Made by a program: the position numbers and the translations under genes. Below the pieces are notes generated by a model. That model was not told the origin of the DNA. It made no database searches and was given only the letters and a program-made list of their open reading frames with translations. From Escherichia phage N2, in sequence record ON645936.1: a stretch of DNA of 64,000 nucleotides. One strand, written 5' to 3'. This document shows, one piece after another, positions 2,458 through 48,400 of the stretch; within the stretch, counting starts at the first letter, position 1, and every line of letters begins with the position of its first letter.

Positions 2458-4275
2458 CTACTGGCTCATCCATTCTTTACGAAGGTCAGCATTATCTCCC
2501 ATGAGCATTTCAAAAAGCTCTTTCCAGTTCTCAGGAAGTTTAACAACATCATATACTGGGTTTTGAATCATCTCACGATATTCAGATTTTTCCAAAGAGC
2601 CAAGTCCTTTAATATAACGGATGCTATGTTTAGGTAGAGCATCTTTGGCACTCTCATATTCAGCGACTGTATAAAACCATTCTTGTTTTTTACCGACCTG
2701 AGCGATGATTACAGGAGTTTTGACAAAGCGAATTCTTCCTTGTTCAAACAATTCTGGCCAATTACTAAAAAATCCGAGCAGAGAAGGATAAATGCTTCCT
2801 AGACCATCGTGGTCAGCATCAGTCATAATAGCAATATTATGATAATTCAAGTTTTCAGCTTTTTCACCAAGAACTAATCCAGTGATTGCGCAAATATCAA
2901 ACAGTTCTTTGTTTTTAAGCATATCAGCATATGACATACCCCAACTGTTGAGAACTTTACCACGCAATGGATAACCGCCATGAAGTTCTTTATCGCGAAC
3001 ATCAATAAGATATCCGATAGCAGAATCACCCTCAGTCAAGAAAAGAGTAGTGTCAGCATCTTTACCGCAAAGATTCGCTTTAATATGTTTATGAACCTTA
3101 GCTTTAGAGGCCTTTTTAGCTGCTTTAGTTTCTGCTGCTTTTTCTGCCGCCAATTTACGAGCCAAAGCAGCTTCAATGATTGGCATTAAAATTGCTTCAT
3201 TATTTAAAATAGCACGTGAAATCTTTTTAGCATCAAGCTGAATATGACTACGAATTTCACCAAATGGAGAAGTCAAACGCTCTTTAGTTTGAGAATCAAA
3301 TCGCATGTTTTTCATATCACGAACAAACATAACGATAGTCAAACATTCTTTAACACGTGCTTTAGTTACATCAATTTTGAATTTACGTTTGATTTGTGGA
3401 ATAAGGTCTTCACAAATATCATCCATAACGCAGTCAATATGATGGCCACCATTCTTAGTATGAATGTTATTGACGTACGTTAATTGACGAAAACCATCCG
3501 GCGAACGACCAACCGCAATAGAACAGTTTTCTTGTTCTTGAACGATAGCATGCTCATCATATTGGCGTGCGTATTTCTTAAAATTACCCTGAACCTTTTT
3601 ACCATTAAAGGTAAATTGAATATCAGGATAAACTACTGCAAGTGTCTGGAGACGATCCAGTGTAATGTCAAGATAAACTTGAGATAGCTCATTAGTTTCA
3701 AATGACATAAAATCAGGAATGAAAGTAACGCGAGTTCCTTTCCATTTTCCAGGAATATCTTCCCACGATTTATTTTCCATGCCGTTTGAACAACGAACTA
3801 CAATATTATTTTGACCGTCGCCAGTTTCACCGACAAACATCACAGAAAAAATGTTAGTTAAACTAGAACCAACACCATTCATACCACCGGTGACGCGTTC
3901 TTTATCATCACCAAAGTTACCACCTGCTTTTGGAATAGTCCAGGCAGCAACTGGACCAGGAATTTCTTCACCAGTAGGTGTTTTAACCATCGCCTGTGGA
4001 ATACCACGACCGTTATCTTCAACTGTTACTTGATTGTTTTTGATAGTAACATTAATTTTATTTGCGAATTTAAACTTAGTACGAATACCTTCATCTACTG
4101 AGTTATCGATAATTTCATCAATAAGCTTAACAAGACCAGGTACATACTGAACACTTTCCCATTTACCAAACAGAAAGCGCTCATGCATTTCATTAGCAGA
4201 AGAACCAATGTACATGCCGCTACGCTTTTTGATATGTTCAATATCGCTCAGAATTTTAATTTCATTCTTAATCAT
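2458..4275 (-). CDS. 39: DNA topoisomerase II large subunit, contiguous (GHKL ATPase + TOPRIM)
   Basis: 605 aa from ATG at 4275; NSVDEG ATPase and EGDSA TOPRIM motifs in one ORF. Confidence 0.85.
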   Translation of the reverse strand: MIKNEIKILSDIEHIKKRSGMYIGSSANEMHERFLFGKWESVQYVPGLVKLIDEIIDNSVDEGIRTKFKFANKINVTIKNNQVTVEDNGRGIPQAMVKTPTGEEIPGPVAAWTIPKAGGNFGDDKERVTGGMNGVGSSLTNIFSVMFVGETGDGQNNIVVRCSNGMENKSWEDIPGKWKGTRVTFIPDFMSFETNELSQVYLDITLDRLQTLAVVYPDIQFTFNGKKVQGNFKKYARQYDEHAIVQEQENCSIAVGRSPDGFRQLTYVNNIHTKNGGHHIDCVMDDICEDLIPQIKRKFKIDVTKARVKECLTIVMFVRDMKNMRFDSQTKERLTSPFGEIRSHIQLDAKKISRAILNNEAILMPIIEAALARKLAAEKAAETKAAKKASKAKVHKHIKANLCGKDADTTLFLTEGDSAIGYLIDVRDKELHGGYPLRGKVLNSWGMSYADMLKNKELFDICAITGLVLGEKAENLNYHNIAIMTDADHDGLGSIYPSLLGFFSNWPELFEQGRIRFVKTPVIIAQVGKKQEWFYTVAEYESAKDALPKHSIRYIKGLGSLEKSEYREMIQNPVYDVVKLPENWKELFEMLMGDNADLRKEWMSQ

Positions 4276-29424: not shown

Positions 29425-30111
29425 TTAAAAATCGTGGGTAGAATCAGCTTCAAGAGCTACTACATAATTCGCGTGTTCACCTTCAAATTTAGCAGCGCCT
29501 TGTTTACCTTTTGCCCAGAGCAGAAGTTTATAATTTCCTGGTTGCATTTTCATATTTGCCATATTGATAATGAAATTAAATGTATTTTCACCGTCATAAT
29601 CACCAAGAGTCAAAGAATATTTAACACGGGTCAAAGCAGAATCTTCCACTTTATTAAAACCGTTAATTACGATTTTACCTTCTTTTACTGTGATAGCAAT
29701 TGTATCAATCTGCAGACCGCGAGATACACGCAACAGCTGTTGAAGGTCTTCCGCTTTAATTTCAGTAACAACAGATGCTACCGGGAATGGAATTGGTTTA
29801 TTAGGAGCAACTACTGTACTCGGATCAGCTGCTGGCCAAAAAATTGTTGAACGGGCATCAGCAATTTTAATATTACCATCTTCTGACTGGGAAATTTCTG
29901 CATCATCATTAACTAGAGACAGAATACCGAGAAAACCGTTCAAATCGTAAATTGCTACATCAAAATCAATAGTGTCAGAAATATTTGCTTCCGCATAAGT
30001 TGTGCCATTAACCGCGCGAGTCATAATAAATTGACCGGATTTAAGCATAATACCAGAGTTAATAGTAGCGAAATTTTTCAAAATATTCAGCGTGTCTTTA
30101 GATAATTTCAT
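29425..30111 (-). CDS. 45: sliding clamp
   Basis: 228-aa ORF, position. Confidence 0.9.
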   Translation of the reverse strand: MKLSKDTLNILKNFATINSGIMLKSGQFIMTRAVNGTTYAEANISDTIDFDVAIYDLNGFLGILSLVNDDAEISQSEDGNIKIADARSTIFWPAADPSTVVAPNKPIPFPVASVVTEIKAEDLQQLLRVSRGLQIDTIAITVKEGKIVINGFNKVEDSALTRVKYSLTLGDYDGENTFNFIINMANMKMQPGNYKLLLWAKGKQGAAKFEGEHANYVVALEADSTHDF

Positions 30112-30995
30112 TTCAATTTCCTATTTACATAATAGTTAGACCAGGACCGTACAGCACCCTGATAAGATTCGTCGTTAAACCCATTAGCTACTGCAATTTT
30201 ACGAAATTTATTATAACTCGGTTTTCCGTAAGCATGCCATAAAGATTTTAATTCATCTTCATGTTCAATCCAAGTTCCTCTAGCTTTAGATTTTCTAAAT
30301 TTTGATTTGAATTCCGGTAAATTATTTCTAACAGTTGCTTGAATTGAAGCTCTCTGTCTTCTTTCAGCATTATTCCATAATTCTTTTTGAGATTTAGAAA
30401 TTTTTGATCTTACACTTTCTGAATTCATTATATCACTAAACTTTTTAGCATAACTACAATCAAGATATTTCAATTTCATCTTATTTGAGAGTTTAAGCTT
30501 TTTCTCATCGGTCCAGTGAATCTTCATTGAATTAGATATTTTGTATTTTACGTCAGAACTATGTTTGTAACCTTTACGAATACCAACATAATCTGGTGTG
30601 ATTTCAGATTGTGAAAGCTTTACAATTTTTCCAGTTAAAACATTTTTATATGTTCCATATCCTTTAGCACCAATTAAAGTATTTTCATCTGCGTACGCTT
30701 TATTAAAATATTTTATATTACTTTTTGCTTTAACTTTTAATTGAAAAAATCTTTCCAATTTTCTTGGATCTAATATAGTTTCAGCCAAAATTTTGACGGT
30801 ATATTTAGTGGTTTTAATAAGCTCAAAATATTCATCGCTATAACTCGATGACACGCTTCCAGTATAAATCTTTCCAGCTGAATCAATTATATTTGTTCCA
30901 TCGAAAATTGCGTCAATTTTCGAACCTATATAATAACACGGAAAAATATTTTTAGCTTCCCGCTCTGGAAAGCTAATAAGATATACTAAATTCAT
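30108..30995 (-). CDS. GIY-YIG homing endonuclease (seg-like)
   Basis: 295 aa; VYLISFPE...CYYIGS motif; basic repeat-rich C-terminus. Confidence 0.6.
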
Positions 30996-31390: not shown

Positions 31391-31582
31391 TTAGTCATAA
31401 TAATCAGTAACAGTCCAAGCTTCATTTCTGTTGGACATTATTTTCGTATATTCTGATTTAAATGCATTCTTAAGCATAGATTCAGTAACTATATGCTCTT
31501 CATTAGAAAAATTATTTCTCAGAATATATCGTTTTATTTCAGGAATAGTTAATAGATGCTGTCCAGTTGAATATTCTGCCAC
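31391..31582 (-). CDS. hypothetical protein
   Basis: 63-aa ORF. Confidence 0.45.
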   Translation of the reverse strand: MAEYSTGQHLLTIPEIKRYILRNNFSNEEHIVTESMLKNAFKSEYTKIMSNRNEAWTVTDYYD

Positions 31583-31592
31583 AGTTCCTCCG

Positions 31593-31600
31593 TATAAATA
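31593..31600 (+). promoter_or_regulatory. late promoter for plus-strand HNH endonuclease
   Basis: exact TATAAATA on plus strand 33 nt before ATG 31634. Confidence 0.55.
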
Positions 31601-31633
31601 TGTTTATCACTCGCTGTATCAAAAGGATATGTT

Positions 31634-32350
31634 ATGAATTATAAACTAATTTATGAAAAGTTAATCTCTAATGCTAAATCTCGAAAACTTGATTGCTATA
31701 CTGAATCTCATCACATTATACCACGCTGTTTAAATGGCAGCGATGATGCTTCAAACTTAGTAGATTTAACACCAGAAGAGCACTATGTAGCTCATCAACT
31801 TTTAGTAAAAATTTATCCTTCTGAACCAAAATTAGTCTATGCTGCTAACATGATGACAGTTTCTACGAAATACGCTAAACGTAACAATAAAACTTTCGGC
31901 TGGATTCGTCGTAAACTCTGGGAAATAGAAAAGAATAAAGAGTTCTCCCAAGAGACACGAAAGAAAATGTCCGATGCAGTAGCTAATAAAGCAAGACTAA
32001 CTTGTCCACATTGCGGTAAGTCTGGATTAAGCGGGAATATGAATCGATGGCATTTTGATAACTGCCCAAATCACCCCAATCCTAAAGTTAGACCGCCAAT
32101 GTCTAAAGAACACAGAAATAATATCTCAAACGGGCTTAAAGCAATCGTTCTTGAAGAAACATCCTGCGAATTCTGCGGAATGATAGGCAAGAAATGCGTT
32201 ATCGCAGCGCATAGAAATTTCTGCAAGAAAAATCCAAATGGACGCAAGAAAACTGAAAAGACTGGTACTTGCGTCCATTGTGGTAAAGTTACCACTTTCG
32301 GAAATTTATCAAGATGGCATAATGATAATTGTAAATATAAACCTAGCTAA
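31634..32350 (+). CDS. HNH homing endonuclease with three zinc-ribbon repeats (plus strand)
   Basis: 238 aa; ESHHIIPRC...NLVDLTPEEH; three CxxCG...RWH..NC repeats; AAAGGA SD. Confidence 0.7.
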   Translation: MNYKLIYEKLISNAKSRKLDCYTESHHIIPRCLNGSDDASNLVDLTPEEHYVAHQLLVKIYPSEPKLVYAANMMTVSTKYAKRNNKTFGWIRRKLWEIEKNKEFSQETRKKMSDAVANKARLTCPHCGKSGLSGNMNRWHFDNCPNHPNPKVRPPMSKEHRNNISNGLKAIVLEETSCEFCGMIGKKCVIAAHRNFCKKNPNGRKKTEKTGTCVHCGKVTTFGNLSRWHNDNCKYKPS

Positions 32351-34031
32351 TCTTAGCTAAACTAAATCTACCAACTTTTTCCATTTGAATGTGCTGACCA
32401 TATTCCTGTGGGTCATGGTCTTTATGCGAAATTATGAAGAAGTTGGTATCCTTCAAACCATCTAAAATTTTAGCCACATTTTTAATACCTTCAGCATCAA
32501 ATGCACCGTCATACACTTCATCAAGAAATAAACAACTTATTTTAACACCTGAAACTTTTTCAGCAATATCACGCCAAGTAAATAAAAGAGCAATATCAAT
32601 TCGTGCTTTTTCACCTTGACTAAATGAAGCATAACTAAAATCTTCACGACCACGGGATTTAATTGTCTCATTAAATTCTTCATCTAATGTAAACACATAA
32701 TCCGCTTCCATTATTTTAAGATAATGGTTAATCTGCTTATTAAATAATGGAATGTACTTTTTAATAATAGCGCCTTTAATACCAGAATCTTTGAGCATAT
32801 CAGTCAAAATTCCTCTATGGTATTTTTCCATTACTAAATTAGTTTTTGTCTTAACAATTTTATCAAGTTCTTCTTGAAGCAGTGCTATTTCATCAGCATG
32901 GTCAATAAACTCAGATGATGCTTTTTCTATAGCCGCTTTAACTTTTTTAGCTTTATCTACCGTCGTGATTAGAGATTGCTTTTTATTGCGAATATCATTC
33001 GCCAACGTCTGCTGGGTTTTAATATTATCTCGGTATTCGTCAACAAGAACTTTTAAATTATCACGATGTGTTGAAAGCTGTTCAAATGAATGCGTACATT
33101 CAGAAACTTTATCTTTAATTTTAGAAACAACTTTATCACCAGAACTTAATTGTGACAAACAGGTTGGACATAATCCACCTTCGTGATACATATTAATGAC
33201 TTTATTATACGAGTCAATTTTTGATTTAATTAAAAATGCTTCTTGACCGATTTTATTAAATGCATCAGTCGGGTCTTCATCCAAAACAATATTAACTAAT
33301 CTTTCATTAGCTTCTTCTATTTCCGATTTTAACGTTCTAGCTTCTTTCGCCAAATCATCATACATATTCTGCAGACGAGTAAGGTTATCACCAGTTAATT
33401 TTTTCTGGCGTTCAACGTTATCATTATATATTTTAATTTGTTGGATAATACTATCTTTTTTAACATCAAGCACTTGGTTTTGTGAATTTAATTCACGTAT
33501 TAGTGCTTTATTAAGCTTATCCATTTCAGCTAATGTTCCTACCTCAAGCAGGTCTTCCACAAGCTTTCTTCGCGCAGGGGTCGACAAACCCATGAAAGGG
33601 GTATACCCTGCTGTACCAAGGACAACAATCTGCTTGAAACTGGCATATGACATTCCGATAAGCTGTTCAAATTCTGCTTGGAAATCTTTACTGCTGGCAG
33701 ATTCATTAAGACGTGTACCGTTAACGGTGATTTCGAAAACGTTTGGTTTTTGTCCTCTTTTGATATAGTACTTTTTCTCATCATATTCCATCCACAGTTC
33801 AACTAAAAGTTCTTTCTTATTTGTGCTGTTTATTAATTGACCTTTCTTTACATCACGGAATGGCTTGCCAAAAAGCCCAAATGTGATGGCTTCTAACATA
33901 GTAGACTTACCACCGCCATTTCGTCCAGTAATAAGAGTTTTTTGAACCTTATCTAATTGAATGTCAACTCCATTTTGACCAACTGACATTATATTTTTAT
34001 ATTTTACTCTATTAAGTTTAAATGATTTCAT
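32343..34031 (-). CDS. 46: Rad50/SbcC-like recombination ATPase
   Basis: 562 aa; Walker A GRNGGGKST; coiled-coil middle. Confidence 0.9.
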   Translation of the reverse strand: MKSFKLNRVKYKNIMSVGQNGVDIQLDKVQKTLITGRNGGGKSTMLEAITFGLFGKPFRDVKKGQLINSTNKKELLVELWMEYDEKKYYIKRGQKPNVFEITVNGTRLNESASSKDFQAEFEQLIGMSYASFKQIVVLGTAGYTPFMGLSTPARRKLVEDLLEVGTLAEMDKLNKALIRELNSQNQVLDVKKDSIIQQIKIYNDNVERQKKLTGDNLTRLQNMYDDLAKEARTLKSEIEEANERLVNIVLDEDPTDAFNKIGQEAFLIKSKIDSYNKVINMYHEGGLCPTCLSQLSSGDKVVSKIKDKVSECTHSFEQLSTHRDNLKVLVDEYRDNIKTQQTLANDIRNKKQSLITTVDKAKKVKAAIEKASSEFIDHADEIALLQEELDKIVKTKTNLVMEKYHRGILTDMLKDSGIKGAIIKKYIPLFNKQINHYLKIMEADYVFTLDEEFNETIKSRGREDFSYASFSQGEKARIDIALLFTWRDIAEKVSGVKISCLFLDEVYDGAFDAEGIKNVAKILDGLKDTNFFIISHKDHDPQEYGQHIQMEKVGRFSLAKIS

Positions 34032-47632: not shown

Positions 47633-47848
47633 TTACCCCAGTTTAACCATGCAATCGCCATATTTCCATTTAGAAATAGACTTTTCACCATTAGAATAAT
47701 AAACTTCGAGTTTAGCACGGCCATTTTTAATTTGAATAACCTTTGCTGTCATCAAAGTTCCATACCCATAATAAACTGCAACCTCATCACCCACATATAC
47801 CGCGCTTCCGCGGTAGTCATGGATATAATCAGTTCCTTCAAGCATCAT
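47633..47848 (-). CDS. hypothetical protein
   Basis: 71-aa ORF. Confidence 0.45.
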   Translation of the reverse strand: MMLEGTDYIHDYRGSAVYVGDEVAVYYGYGTLMTAKVIQIKNGRAKLEVYYSNGEKSISKWKYGDCMVKLG

Positions 47849-48108
47849 TTAAAGTATTCCCGCAATTGGTCAAATCCACCAATATGACTTCCATCAGGAG
47901 CAAATACTTGTGGCATCGTCAGTCCAATTTGAGTATCACGACCAAGTTTAGTCAGAAGCTCAGCGATTTTCTCATCATCAAAAACACCTTTTTCCGGCAT
48001 AATGTTGATAAATTCAAACGGCTGTTTCTTCACAGTCAAAAGACGTTTTGCATTATCACAATATACACATTTATGGATGTTGCTATCATAACCATATACT
48101 TTAAACAT
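47845..48108 (-). CDS. nrdC: phage thioredoxin/glutaredoxin
   Basis: 87 aa starting MFKVYGYDSNIHKCVYCDNAK. Confidence 0.9.
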   Translation of the reverse strand: MFKVYGYDSNIHKCVYCDNAKRLLTVKKQPFEFINIMPEKGVFDDEKIAELLTKLGRDTQIGLTMPQVFAPDGSHIGGFDQLREYFK

Positions 48109-48109
48109 A

Positions 48110-48400
48110 TTATTCCTTAATTCCTAGTACTTGTTTAAAAGTCTCGTCGTAATCAAGACTTTGGCCCGTTTGTTCTTTATGTTTGTATATAATATCACTT
48201 ACTTCTGATAGCATATTTTTATATGAACGAGTTAAAGCAGATTTAAGAACGCTATATCTATCAGGAAATTTACCGTGTTCATTATAATAAGCTATTGCTA
48301 ATTCACGGACTGCTTTTTCAGCAATCTCCATATATTCTTTACGCTTGGTCATTTTCTTCTCTCTCAAATCGGTGTTTGCAATGACGGCATTTATATTCAA
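48110..48400 (-). CDS. hypothetical protein
   Basis: 96-aa ORF; true start may be internal MTKRKEY. Confidence 0.4.

Follow-up and report, generated by a model that had tools for sequence, protein, structure and literature searches.

What kind of gene runs against its neighbours beside gene 46 of this T4-like phage (Tequatrovirus)? The window analysed here is a 64,000-nucleotide stretch of Escherichia phage N2 (ON645936.1), and a first-pass annotation of it, made from the letters alone, had pointed to a long plus-strand gene in a minus-strand region. The open reading frame (ORF) in question, 31634-32350, was confirmed. Besides it, just two plus-strand ORFs of at least 110 aa were found between 15 and 50 kb: 29434-29850, which lies entirely within gene 45 on the opposite strand, and 47743-48120, for which a family search returned no match. 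ORF 31634-32350 is the sole unshadowed long plus-strand ORF of this interval. The Shine-Dalgarno (SD) sequence AAAGGA that had been noted ahead of it is likewise present. The gene and its boundaries are:

31634-32350, plus strand: gene for a probable 238-aa free-standing HNH homing endonuclease of the Mob family, with ATG start; orthologue of RB32ORF054w / RB51ORF057
31622-31627, plus strand: Shine-Dalgarno sequence AAAGGA, 6 nt ahead of the ATG, as seen in the letters themselves
32343-32350, both strands: convergent overlap of 8 nt between the endonuclease stop (TAA) and the gene 46 stop (TAG, minus strand)

These two stops abut or overlap (0-23 nt) in all lineages examined. Compared with RB51, the gene differs at 17 nt and its product at 2 aa, and the resulting dN/dS of 0.03, at the lower end of the observed range of 0.03-0.26, points to strong purifying selection. 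We assign a probability of about 0.82 to the reading that this is a free-standing homing endonuclease gene of the T4 Mob (HNH) type, inserted in inverted orientation in the 45.2/46 site of Tequatrovirus. The kind of gene is already known, and it is annotated in many related phages.

The N-terminal HNH motif that the first-pass annotation had described was found as follows:

31703-31795, plus strand: HNH (ββα-metal) catalytic core with H26/H27, N41 and H50 (H54), ESHHIIPRC...NLVDLTPEEHYVAH

All 78 homologues have the same residues at H26/H27, N41, H50 and H54, and AlphaFold2 (AF2) placed the core on strands 24-27 and 42-45 and helix 47-60. Searching with a family profile gave matches to solved HNH cores, namely those of EcoKMcrA (E = 5e-4), Cas8-HNH, IscB and a group II maturase; a single-sequence search against PDB sequences gave no significant match. 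Pfam PF01844 (HNH) scored 16.9 bits (E = 0.0072), under its gathering cutoff of 21.4, and the protein represents a divergent HNH subfamily. The same Pfam family is listed for a few homologues in precomputed Pfam, and in a separate scan the homologue P0043 just passed (21.6 vs the cutoff of 21.4). The protein matched PHROG 655 (homing endonuclease) with E = 8.6e-69 and T4 MobE with 35% identity over the full length (E = 3e-34). When T4 was searched by tblastn, five places in the record were matched, the best of which was mobE. Judged by these similarities, the protein is almost certainly a member of the HNH homing-endonuclease family. The earlier description of an HNH endonuclease opposite in strand to its neighbours was therefore correct as far as it went, and the mobile, free-standing Mob-family identity had not been recognised. 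A packaging-associated (terminase-linked) HNH role was set aside: no terminase gene lies near in the annotated neighbourhood, and the gene belongs to the Mob family.

The distribution of the gene is patchy. The surrounding region was matched by 711 phage records, 59 of which also matched the element, and 58 of these 59 did so with 97-100% DNA identity over at least 97% of its 778 nt. The gene is thus near-identical in 58 phage records, and it is absent from T4 and most relatives; the best match in T4 is MobE only. The coding sequences of RB32ORF054w / RB51ORF057, Aplg8, teqhad, slur07 and F13076, among others, are the same gene (97-100% DNA identity). RB51ORF057/RB32ORF054w are annotated as 'similar to mobB', and the coding sequences of the other relatives as 'homing endonuclease'. 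Experimental work on any of these coding sequences, or studies of transcription, cleavage or homing for the three-finger lineage (named after the zinc fingers described below), were not found in the literature.

The gene occupies the interval between 45.2 and 46, where the early/middle genes around it run in the opposite direction. All examined loci of three-finger homologues, which span several genera (37-99% identity), show the same site and orientation; these were six diverged lineages of 37-64% identity together with F13076 and RB51, the two close relatives examined. The empty site was defined in Salmonella phage GRNsp7. Scanning of IMG/VR contigs with gp45.2 yielded six loci, and the endonuclease gene was absent from all of them. 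In GRNsp7 and the six empty IMG/VR loci, identity in the neighbouring genes 45.2 and rpbA is 95-100%. Alignment with GRNsp7 placed the left boundary of the insertion:

31577-31592, no strand: left insertion junction, where the start of gene 45.2 is altered to GTG plus an extra Ala codon, vs ATG in GRNsp7

On the other side, the element is accompanied by a diverged stretch of its neighbour:

32351-32580, minus strand: diverged 3' tract of gene 46 (Rad50/SbcC-like), covering Walker B to H-loop and the C-terminal tail, which travels with the endonuclease gene

Compared with endonuclease-free alleles, this tract of ~240 nt at the end of gene 46 has 73-77% nucleotide identity (61-88% in 60-nt bins), and a single protein comparison (with L003) gave 72% amino acid identity for the tract. 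The next 1.4 kb of gene 46 are mostly 95-100% identical, with a few 60-nt bins at 86-93%. Endonuclease-free phages hold at least two gene 46 3' alleles, ~80% identical to each other, so that divergence in the tract is not specific to the element and locates no cleavage site. For the same reason a simple two-allele model of the tract was rejected. At roughly even odds, this pattern places a putative homing target in the final ~250 nt of gene 46. According to the main reading, the gene would be transcribed late from its own gp55-type promoter, with a start near 31606. In mixed infections the enzyme would use its helices and fingers to bind an extended site, and endonuclease-free genomes would be nicked or cut within or close to the 3' end of gene 46. 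Through recombinational repair, the recipient would then acquire the endonuclease gene together with the adjoining 46 tract, and the carrier's own 46 allele would resist cutting. As points against the homing endonuclease reading we counted the Pfam HNH and NUMOD3 scores under their cutoffs, the Foldseek E-values for the finger array, all above 0.001, and the existence of at least two gene 46 3' alleles among endonuclease-free phages.

The upstream region contains the following signals:

31593-31600, plus strand: T4-type late promoter core TATAAATA, an exact match 33 nt before the ATG
31602-31621, plus strand: 5'UTR motif GTTTATCA-N4-CTGTATCA, kept in diverged copies

The exact TATAAATA had been reported at this distance by the first-pass annotation, and the transcript predicted from it would start near 31606-31607 (+). 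The 64 kb contain five copies of TATAAATA, two of which are on the plus strand, and ~10 were expected from shuffles; the core is therefore depleted in the window rather than common. In six of the eight diverged lineages an exact copy precedes the ATG by 27-53 nt, and the other two have a near match. This conservation supports the claim that the gene has its own late promoter, and TATAAATA is likely to be functional as such. The motif GTTTATCA-N4-CTGTATCA is retained in the Mosigvirus, Klebsiella Roth67 and metagenomic (L016) copies, with coding DNA only ~70% identical.

Several further candidates around the gene were tried and rejected. An SD-sequestering hairpin of the I-TevI / T4 lysozyme type at the late promoter folded no better than shuffles (z = -0.03). 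An upstream UUCCUCC is able to pair with the SD in read-through RNA. The insertion displaces the middle promoter that is native to the empty site, and a MotA-box with a -10 match on the minus strand inside the ORF (32118-32143) is a candidate replacement, which we treat as a lead only. An embedded middle promoter was not accepted, as the match is limited to the Tequatrovirus copies and chance would account for ~8 of the 21 matches of this type in the window. A 3' hairpin was rejected as a general feature: it is strong in Tequatrovirus carriers and Slopekvirus and absent in Mosigvirus and Roth67.

The element could alternatively be a domesticated, non-mobile nuclease or DNA-binding protein that no longer homes and is kept for the benefit of the phage, either by excluding the markers of competitors or through late regulation by DNA binding or antisense transcription into gene 46. 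The strong purifying selection is compatible with this, and the constant site and orientation of the lineage in different genera, down to 37% identity, resemble vertical inheritance. A late transcript would run antisense into gene 46. No plus-strand terminator was found, and I-TevI doubles as a repressor (PMC2988022). The patchy presence among near-identical Tequatroviruses (59/711 records), in contrast, speaks for mobility, and the sharply bounded diverged flank is typical of co-conversion. Also, the promoter region lacks operator-like similarity: when the promoter/5'UTR was compared with the empty site or the 3' region of gene 46, the best score for an I-TevI-like operator was 8, against a shuffle mean of 9.8. 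Finally, the Klebsiella Roth67 copy, which is split into two ORFs, is decaying, as expected of a selfish element. We consider domestication unlikely.

Also unlikely is an old homing element that has become locked to this site in phages spanning Tequatrovirus, Mosigvirus, Slopekvirus and other relatives. Here, the segment of the Rad50-like gene 46 that codes for Walker B to H-loop would be recognised by the A-B-A array, in which ββα CCHC fingers alternate with NUMOD3 helices, and an antisense late transcript into gene 46, ending at an allele-specific hairpin, would modulate gp46 late in infection. If this were true, the element would be a selfish gene and at the same time a regulator of the recombination nuclease needed for homing.

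An inactive, decaying homing endonuclease remnant is very improbable: many T4 homing endonuclease genes are defunct, such as T4 I-TevIII (PMC1865063), and Roth67 carries a split copy, but the ORF in the window is full-length with intact catalytic residues and all 12 zinc-ligand residues, its dN/dS is 0.03-0.26, and 58 of the 59 copies are conserved as described above.

Returning to the homing endonuclease reading, we examined the C-terminal part of the protein, through which it would recognise DNA. The predicted features of this part are:

31940-31984, plus strand: NUMOD3-like helix 1, residues 103-117 (predicted helix 106-117)
32003-32065, plus strand: zinc finger 1, type A, residues 124-144, CPHCGKSGLSGNMNRWHFDNC, with C124, C127, H140 and C144
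32096-32143, plus strand: NUMOD3-like helix 2, residues 155-170, MSKEHRNNISNGLKA (predicted helix 158-170)
32165-32224, plus strand: zinc finger 2, type B, residues 178-197, CEFCGMIGKKCVIAAHRNFC, with C178, C181, H193 and C197
32270-32332, plus strand: zinc finger 3, type A, residues 213-233, CVHCGKVTTFGNLSRWHNDNC, with C213, C216, H229 and C233

The fingers follow the motif C-x2-C-x11/12-H-x3-C, with x12 in fingers 1 and 3 and x11 in finger 2; the classical C2H2 finger spacing is C-x2-C-x12-H-x3. Beyond these three modules, the pattern C..C.{10,14}H...C was found in none of the six frames of the 64-kb window. The first-pass annotation had described three tandem repeats of the form C-x2-C-G-K...RWH-x-D-NC, and pairwise alignment upheld this for repeats 1 and 3 (z = 15 against shuffles). 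Repeat 2 (CEFCGMIGKKCVIAAHRNFC) has only the CCHC scaffold in common with them, at z ~2.3, and 62-85 of 2000 shuffles scored as well. The spacers between the fingers are 33 and 15 residues long, and the modules are not arranged head-to-tail. There are indeed three Cys/His modules, in which 12 of 12 ligand positions are invariant in 24 homologues (31-61% identity), but the term 'triplicated' was an overstatement, as the arrangement is A-B-A, with two finger subtypes, fingers 1 and 3 being clear copies and finger 2 divergent. Of the three fingers, only finger 3 is invariant in all 78 homologues; T4 MobE has it too. C188 is not regarded as a ligand because it is replaced by Ser in three homologues (P0010, P0013 and P0017).

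Residues 103-115 matched Pfam NUMOD3 (PF07460) with 12.6 bits, under the gathering cutoff of 20.4. In the corresponding region of more distant homologues, NUMOD3 was significant in one (P0025, residues 109-137, E = 4.4e-8) and sub-threshold in another (P0023, residues 103-119). The helices are called NUMOD3-like because the match is sub-threshold here, yet homologues match in the corresponding region. Distant homologues have further NUMOD3 repeats in place of helix 2. The predicted order of the C-terminal part is NUMOD3-like helix, finger A, NUMOD3-like helix, finger B, finger A.

The modules had been described as zinc ribbons forming a DNA-binding array. C-x2-C pairs are common in ribbons, and homologues gave weak, sub-threshold Pfam matches to several Zn_ribbon models. 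However, a zinc ribbon is built from two β-hairpin knuckles with two ligands each and takes no ligand from a helix, and each module here has a single C-x2-C knuckle. In two independent AlphaFold2 runs (pLDDT 94.4 and 89.7), C-x2-C of each module was located on a β-hairpin, and the remaining ligand pair (H-x3-C) came from a helix, at its C-terminal end; in finger 1, the hairpin spans residues 121-132 and the helix residues 133-143. The Foldseek lists consisted mostly of ββα finger arrays (CTCF, TRAF6, TFIIIA), with best E-values of 0.0035-0.02, all >0.001, and none of the listed hits was described as a zinc ribbon. Also, the spacing is that of classical C2H2 fingers and of the I-TevIII fingers (PMC1865063). 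From these models, the modules are very probably ββα CCHC fingers, and three tandem ribbons are highly improbable. The predicted role as a DNA-binding array was retained, as it is supported by homology to the I-TevIII fingers (E = 1e-8).

The coding sequence should therefore be annotated as a Mob-type HNH homing endonuclease with I-TevIII-type CCHC zinc fingers and not as a zinc-ribbon protein. It is a gene of an ordinary kind, which stands out by its three zinc fingers, reversed orientation and own predicted late promoter, and it leaves the current understanding of homing endonucleases unchanged. For specialists, the whole three-finger clade at one site beside gene 46 across genera is of interest, and the linked diverged allele of the gp46 C-terminus marks out a defined candidate region in which the target of this uncharacterised Mob enzyme can be tested for. 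Nuclease engineers could be interested in the helix-finger-helix-finger-finger array as a natural form of modular DNA recognition.

Among known systems, T4 MobE is a free-standing HNH homing endonuclease encoded between nrdA and nrdB, and it nicks T2 nrdB (PMC2790892). Both proteins have an N-terminal HNH domain, NUMOD3-type helices and a C-terminal type-A CCHC finger, and both genes stand free in an intergenic site beside a conserved gene of DNA metabolism, where the flank on the target side is polymorphic. In contrast, MobE has one finger, with NUMOD3 repeats at the positions of fingers 1 and 2 of the present protein. The mobE gene is promoterless, co-oriented and co-transcribed with nrdA (PMC2790892), whereas the gene in the window runs against its neighbours and carries a TATAAATA of its own. 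Its site is a different one too, and its presumed target is gene 46, compared with nrdB for MobE.

I-TevIII of phage RB3 is an intron-encoded HNH endonuclease with two CX2CX12-13HX3C zinc fingers, which were shown experimentally to bind zinc and to be required for DNA binding; its catalytic mutants are H26, H27, N39 and H48 (PMC1865063). The HNH residues of the two proteins are near-identical in position (H26, H27, N39/41, H48/50). Fingers 2 and 3 align with the I-TevIII pair in the order B then A, so that finger 2 corresponds to I-TevIII finger 1 (CDFCGHIGKGPGFYLKHNDRC). Against the T4 I-TevIII remnant, identity was 38%; the finger pair aligned with E = 1e-8 and finger 1 with 8e-7, and PHROG 27406 and 12324 matched residues 165-235. 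Unlike I-TevIII, which has two fingers and cuts as a dimer, the window protein is free-standing and has an extra NUMOD3-like helix and finger, and its finger 2 spacer is 11 instead of 12-13. MobE nicks and I-TevIII cuts as a dimer, which gives two modes among HNH homing enzymes. The C2H2/TRAF-type ββα arrays of CTCF, TFIIIA and TRAF6 resemble the predicted fingers in the hairpin C-x2-C and the helix-end His/Cys pair, but here the last ligand is Cys and the linkers are long, with NUMOD3-like helices. Common ancestry with these arrays is not shown, because neither sequence nor structure comparison gave a significant E-value (best 0.0035).

The homing endonuclease genes of T4 are all co-oriented with their neighbours except for the promoterless segD (2010 review, PMC2988022). 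Both segD and the present gene are free-standing endonuclease genes in opposite orientation to their neighbours. However, segD encodes a GIY-YIG enzyme and has no recognisable promoter, and its transcript is assumed to be at a very low level (PMC2988022), whereas the gene described here encodes an HNH enzyme and is preceded by a conserved predicted late promoter.

The ORF at 31634–32350 lies in a T4-like phage of the genus Tequatrovirus. The surrounding 4.7 kb shares 98.4% identity with Salmonella phage F13076 and 96–98% with RB51, RB68, and many Escherichia and Shigella phages. The minus-strand order is 44, 45, a 295-aa homing endonuclease gene, rpbA, 45.2, the plus-strand ORF, gene 46, and a 284-aa HNH endonuclease gene:

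30108–30995, minus strand: homing endonuclease gene between gene 45 and rpbA, 295 aa; PHROGs 655 (2.1e-31) and 7504
minus strand: rpbA; Pfam Phage_RpbA, 5.8e-42
minus strand: 45.2; Pfam Gp45_2, 4.9e-35
31634–32350, plus strand: endonuclease ORF, 238 aa
minus strand: gene 46, SbcC/Rad50-like, 562 aa
34047–34901, minus strand: HNH homing endonuclease gene just downstream of gene 46, 284 aa; EAHHVLPKS...NLVNLSHFNHFKAH

The ORF had been described as the only convincing long plus-strand gene here, and this held: at 15–50 kb, only two further plus-strand ORFs reach 110 aa, one wholly within gene 45 and one without a family hit. Three endonuclease genes lie within 5 kb. The 295-aa protein had no Pfam or NCBIfam hit at threshold, and its gene is a second presence/absence element, as it is missing from RB51, RB68, Aplg8, and others. 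The 284-aa and 295-aa proteins align over ~220 residues (26% identity, E = 2e-11); the C-terminal ~45 are part of this alignment, the N-terminal regions are not. The plus-strand ORF without a family hit (47743–48120, 125 aa), amid a minus-strand region, matched no PHROG and is probably not a real gene.

The ORF at 31634–32350 is a mobile gene for a homing endonuclease; its family has long been known, and dozens of genomes already have the gene annotated. Its protein matched PHROG 655 'homing endonuclease' (8.6e-69) and T4 MobE across its whole length (35% identity, E = 3e-34); MobE is the best match in T4, where an orthologue is absent. The same gene appears in GenBank as RB32ORF054w/RB51ORF057, 'similar to mobB, putative site-specific intron-like DNA endonuclease', and in RefSeq records as 'homing endonuclease'. 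The 778-nt element was found in 59 phage records (58 at 97–100% identity), while 711 records match the surrounding region; the empty site was represented by Salmonella phage GRNsp7 and six IMG/VR loci. The protein is under purifying selection, as dN/dS was 0.03 against RB51 (17 nucleotide and 2 amino-acid differences) and 0.26 against a 60%-identical homologue. The identical protein (DNA 99.6% identical) also occurs in PV654520.1, 'Pseudomonas phage vB_PSGBLB0006' (host P. aeruginosa, 142 kb). Such a host is unexpected for a Tequatrovirus-like sequence, and the record may be mislabelled or contaminated.

The Pfam HNH score was below threshold (16.9 versus 21.4 bits). E24, H26, H27, N41, H50, and H54 were invariant in 78 homologues, a ββα core was predicted by AlphaFold2 (pLDDT 94.4), and the family profile hit the HNH cores of EcoKMcrA (E = 5e-4), Cas8-HNH, IscB, and a group II intron maturase. 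The HNH residues correspond to those of the I-TevIII catalytic mutants H26A, H27A, N39A, and H48A (PMC1865063). The HNH assignment of the first-pass annotation was right in outline.

The C-terminal half contains three matches to C..C.{10,14}H...C, a pattern found nowhere else across the six frames of the window:

finger 1, residues 124–144, plus strand
finger 2, residues 178–197, plus strand
finger 3, residues 213–233, plus strand

All 12 ligand positions were invariant in 24 homologues of 31–61% identity. The proposed consensus C-x2-C-G-K...RWH-x-D-NC describes only two of the three repeats, because repeats 1 and 3 aligned at z = 15 against shuffles, whereas repeat 2 had only the ligand scaffold in common (z ~2.3). 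Two independent AlphaFold2 runs (full length and residues 100–238) predicted two short strands followed by a helix in each module, placing C-x2-C at the hairpin and H-x3-C at the helix C-terminus. On these models, the modules are ββα (C2H2-like) fingers with CCHC ligands, not the zinc ribbons originally named. Foldseek against the PDB returned almost only ββα finger arrays (TRAF6, CTCF, Cep104, TFIIIA, Snail, ZFAT), and the full-length model also matched HNH domains; as no E-value fell below 0.0035, the fold class is supported and homology is not.

Residues 174–234 (fingers 2 and 3) align with both fingers of the T4 I-TevIII remnant (38% identity, E = 1e-8). Residues 165–235 matched PHROGs 27406 ('endonuclease') and 12324 ('intron-like DNA endonuclease'), whose profile lengths of 97 and 269 suggest the I-TevIII remnant and full-length I-TevIII, respectively. 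In I-TevIII, each CX2CX12-13HX3C motif binds one zinc and is required for DNA binding, and the dimer interface maps to the finger region (Robbins et al. 2007, PMC1865063). Pattern and ligand conservation support the earlier proposal of Cys/His modules, and this alignment supports a DNA-binding role for them. Fingers 1 and 3 share type A (CPHCGK..N..RWHxDNC) with I-TevIII finger 2 and the sole MobE finger; finger 2 shares type B (CxFCGxxGK...H...CKxNPN) with I-TevIII finger 1. A NUMOD3-like helix, sub-threshold here and significant in homologues, precedes each of fingers 1 and 2. Among the 120 best homologues, 86 had one finger, 7 had two, and 25 had three, 23 of the latter in the order A-B-A.

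Upstream, the reported signals were present: an exact TATAAATA at 31593–31600, 33 nt 5′ of the ATG, and an AAAGGA SD at 31622–31627. The octamer is depleted in the 64 kb (5 copies, 2 on the plus strand, versus ~10 expected from dinucleotide shuffles), so that a copy correctly spaced from a start codon is meaningful. Six of eight lineages had it unchanged 27–53 nt 5′ of the ATG, and the other two had CTTAAATA and TATAAGTA; this conservation argues for the claimed late promoter. Directly after it, a 5′UTR motif, GTTTATCA-N4-12-C(T/A)GTATCA (31602–31621, plus strand), was full in Tequatrovirus, Mosigvirus, and Roth67 and partial in the metagenomic locus L016, although coding DNA is only ~70% identical across these copies. 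Neither a hairpin near the promoter that would sequester the SD (z = −0.03) nor an I-TevI-style operator resembling the target was supported.

At the empty site, a textbook MotA-box plus −10 middle promoter (TGCTTTA-N11-TATAAT) precedes 45.2 (2696–2721, minus strand, of the endonuclease-free locus L003). The insertion displaces it; in Mosigvirus, a middle promoter is retained between 45.2 and the endonuclease gene. Within the ORF itself, carriers show a MotA-box plus −10 match (32118–32143, minus strand) that would yield antisense RNA to the 5′ half of the ORF. This match was confined to Tequatrovirus copies, and a conserved embedded middle promoter was unsupported.

Homology to the empty site breaks on the left at ~31577, at the 45.2 start codon (ATG to GTG plus one extra codon), and resumes on the right inside the end of gene 46, where the C-terminal tail ...GRFTVMV becomes ...GRFSLAKIS. 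Carriers and non-carriers were 95–100% identical in rpbA and 45.2 and mostly so in gene 46 upstream of ~32580 (a few 60-nt bins, 86–93%), versus only 73–77% DNA identity in the last ~240 nt of gene 46 (72% protein identity in a single comparison, window versus L003). The tract covers the coding sequence from Walker B (LFLDEV) to the H-loop (ISH). In carriers, part of it is near-identical in protein to the allele of Klebsiella phage Roth67, though the 200 upstream gp46 residues compared are only 64.5% identical, which suggests transfer together with the endonuclease element. In free-standing endonucleases, co-conversion and target-site immunity usually show as a one-sided, sharply bounded diverged flank, e.g., MobE/nrdB (PMC2790892), and we infer by this analogy a homing target in the gene 46 3′ end of endonuclease-free phages. 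These phages carry two tract alleles, only ~80% identical, so the tract is generally polymorphic and the cleavage site is not assignable computationally. Across 32341–32580 and the equivalent tracts of L003 and L009–L013, at least three allele classes (one carrier, two non-carrier) were 74–81% identical to each other in otherwise 96–100% identical Tequatroviruses.

Within this gene 46 end, 20–100 nt past the endonuclease stop, a 13-bp long-range stem (32369–32381 with 32437–32449) occurs in endonuclease-carrying alleles only (z = −2.7 in the window, −5.3 in RB51; ~−0.5 in empty alleles). For a late plus-strand transcript, it could stabilise the 3′ end or act as a barrier. In Slopekvirus, another strong hairpin occupies this position, and Mosigvirus and Roth67 have none; a universal 3′ hairpin was thus not supported.

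We examined three-finger relatives from Mosigvirus (58% identity), Roth67 (64%), Slopekvirus phT4A (42%), and three metagenomic contigs (60%, 48%, 37%). All six adjoin the 3′ end of a gene 46 homologue, run opposite to it, and abut or overlap its stop codon; the upstream neighbour, where identifiable, is 45.2. The Roth67 orthologue (L005 2501–3235) is split into two annotated ORFs of 90 and 133 aa, apparently a copy decaying at the same site.

Sequence, homology, and prediction together show the domain architecture with its catalytic and ligand residues, the presence/absence polymorphism, the purifying selection on the gene, the conserved late-promoter octamer, and the linked diverged flank. 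In the proposed mechanism, late transcription would start at ~31606, the protein would bind extended DNA through its helices and fingers, the endonuclease-free 46 allele would be nicked or cut, and a ~1 kb cassette (~31577–32580) would be copied by recombination. The first-pass annotation was correct in observation, and its reading holds in outline, except for the fold label and the missed mobile homing endonuclease. This kind of gene is already known; the predicted A-B-A array, the fixed inverted placement beside gene 46, and the conserved putative late promoter are of modest specialist interest.

Among known systems, MobE nicks and I-TevIII cuts as a dimer, and both are candidate modes for this enzyme. 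The diverged flank of MobE lies at nrdB, whereas that of the present element lies at the gene 46 3′ end. T4 homing endonuclease genes are all co-oriented with their neighbours, except segD, which is promoterless (2010 review, PMC2988022). Like segD, the present lineage is inverted; unlike segD, it has a conserved TATAAATA, a putative late promoter of its own.
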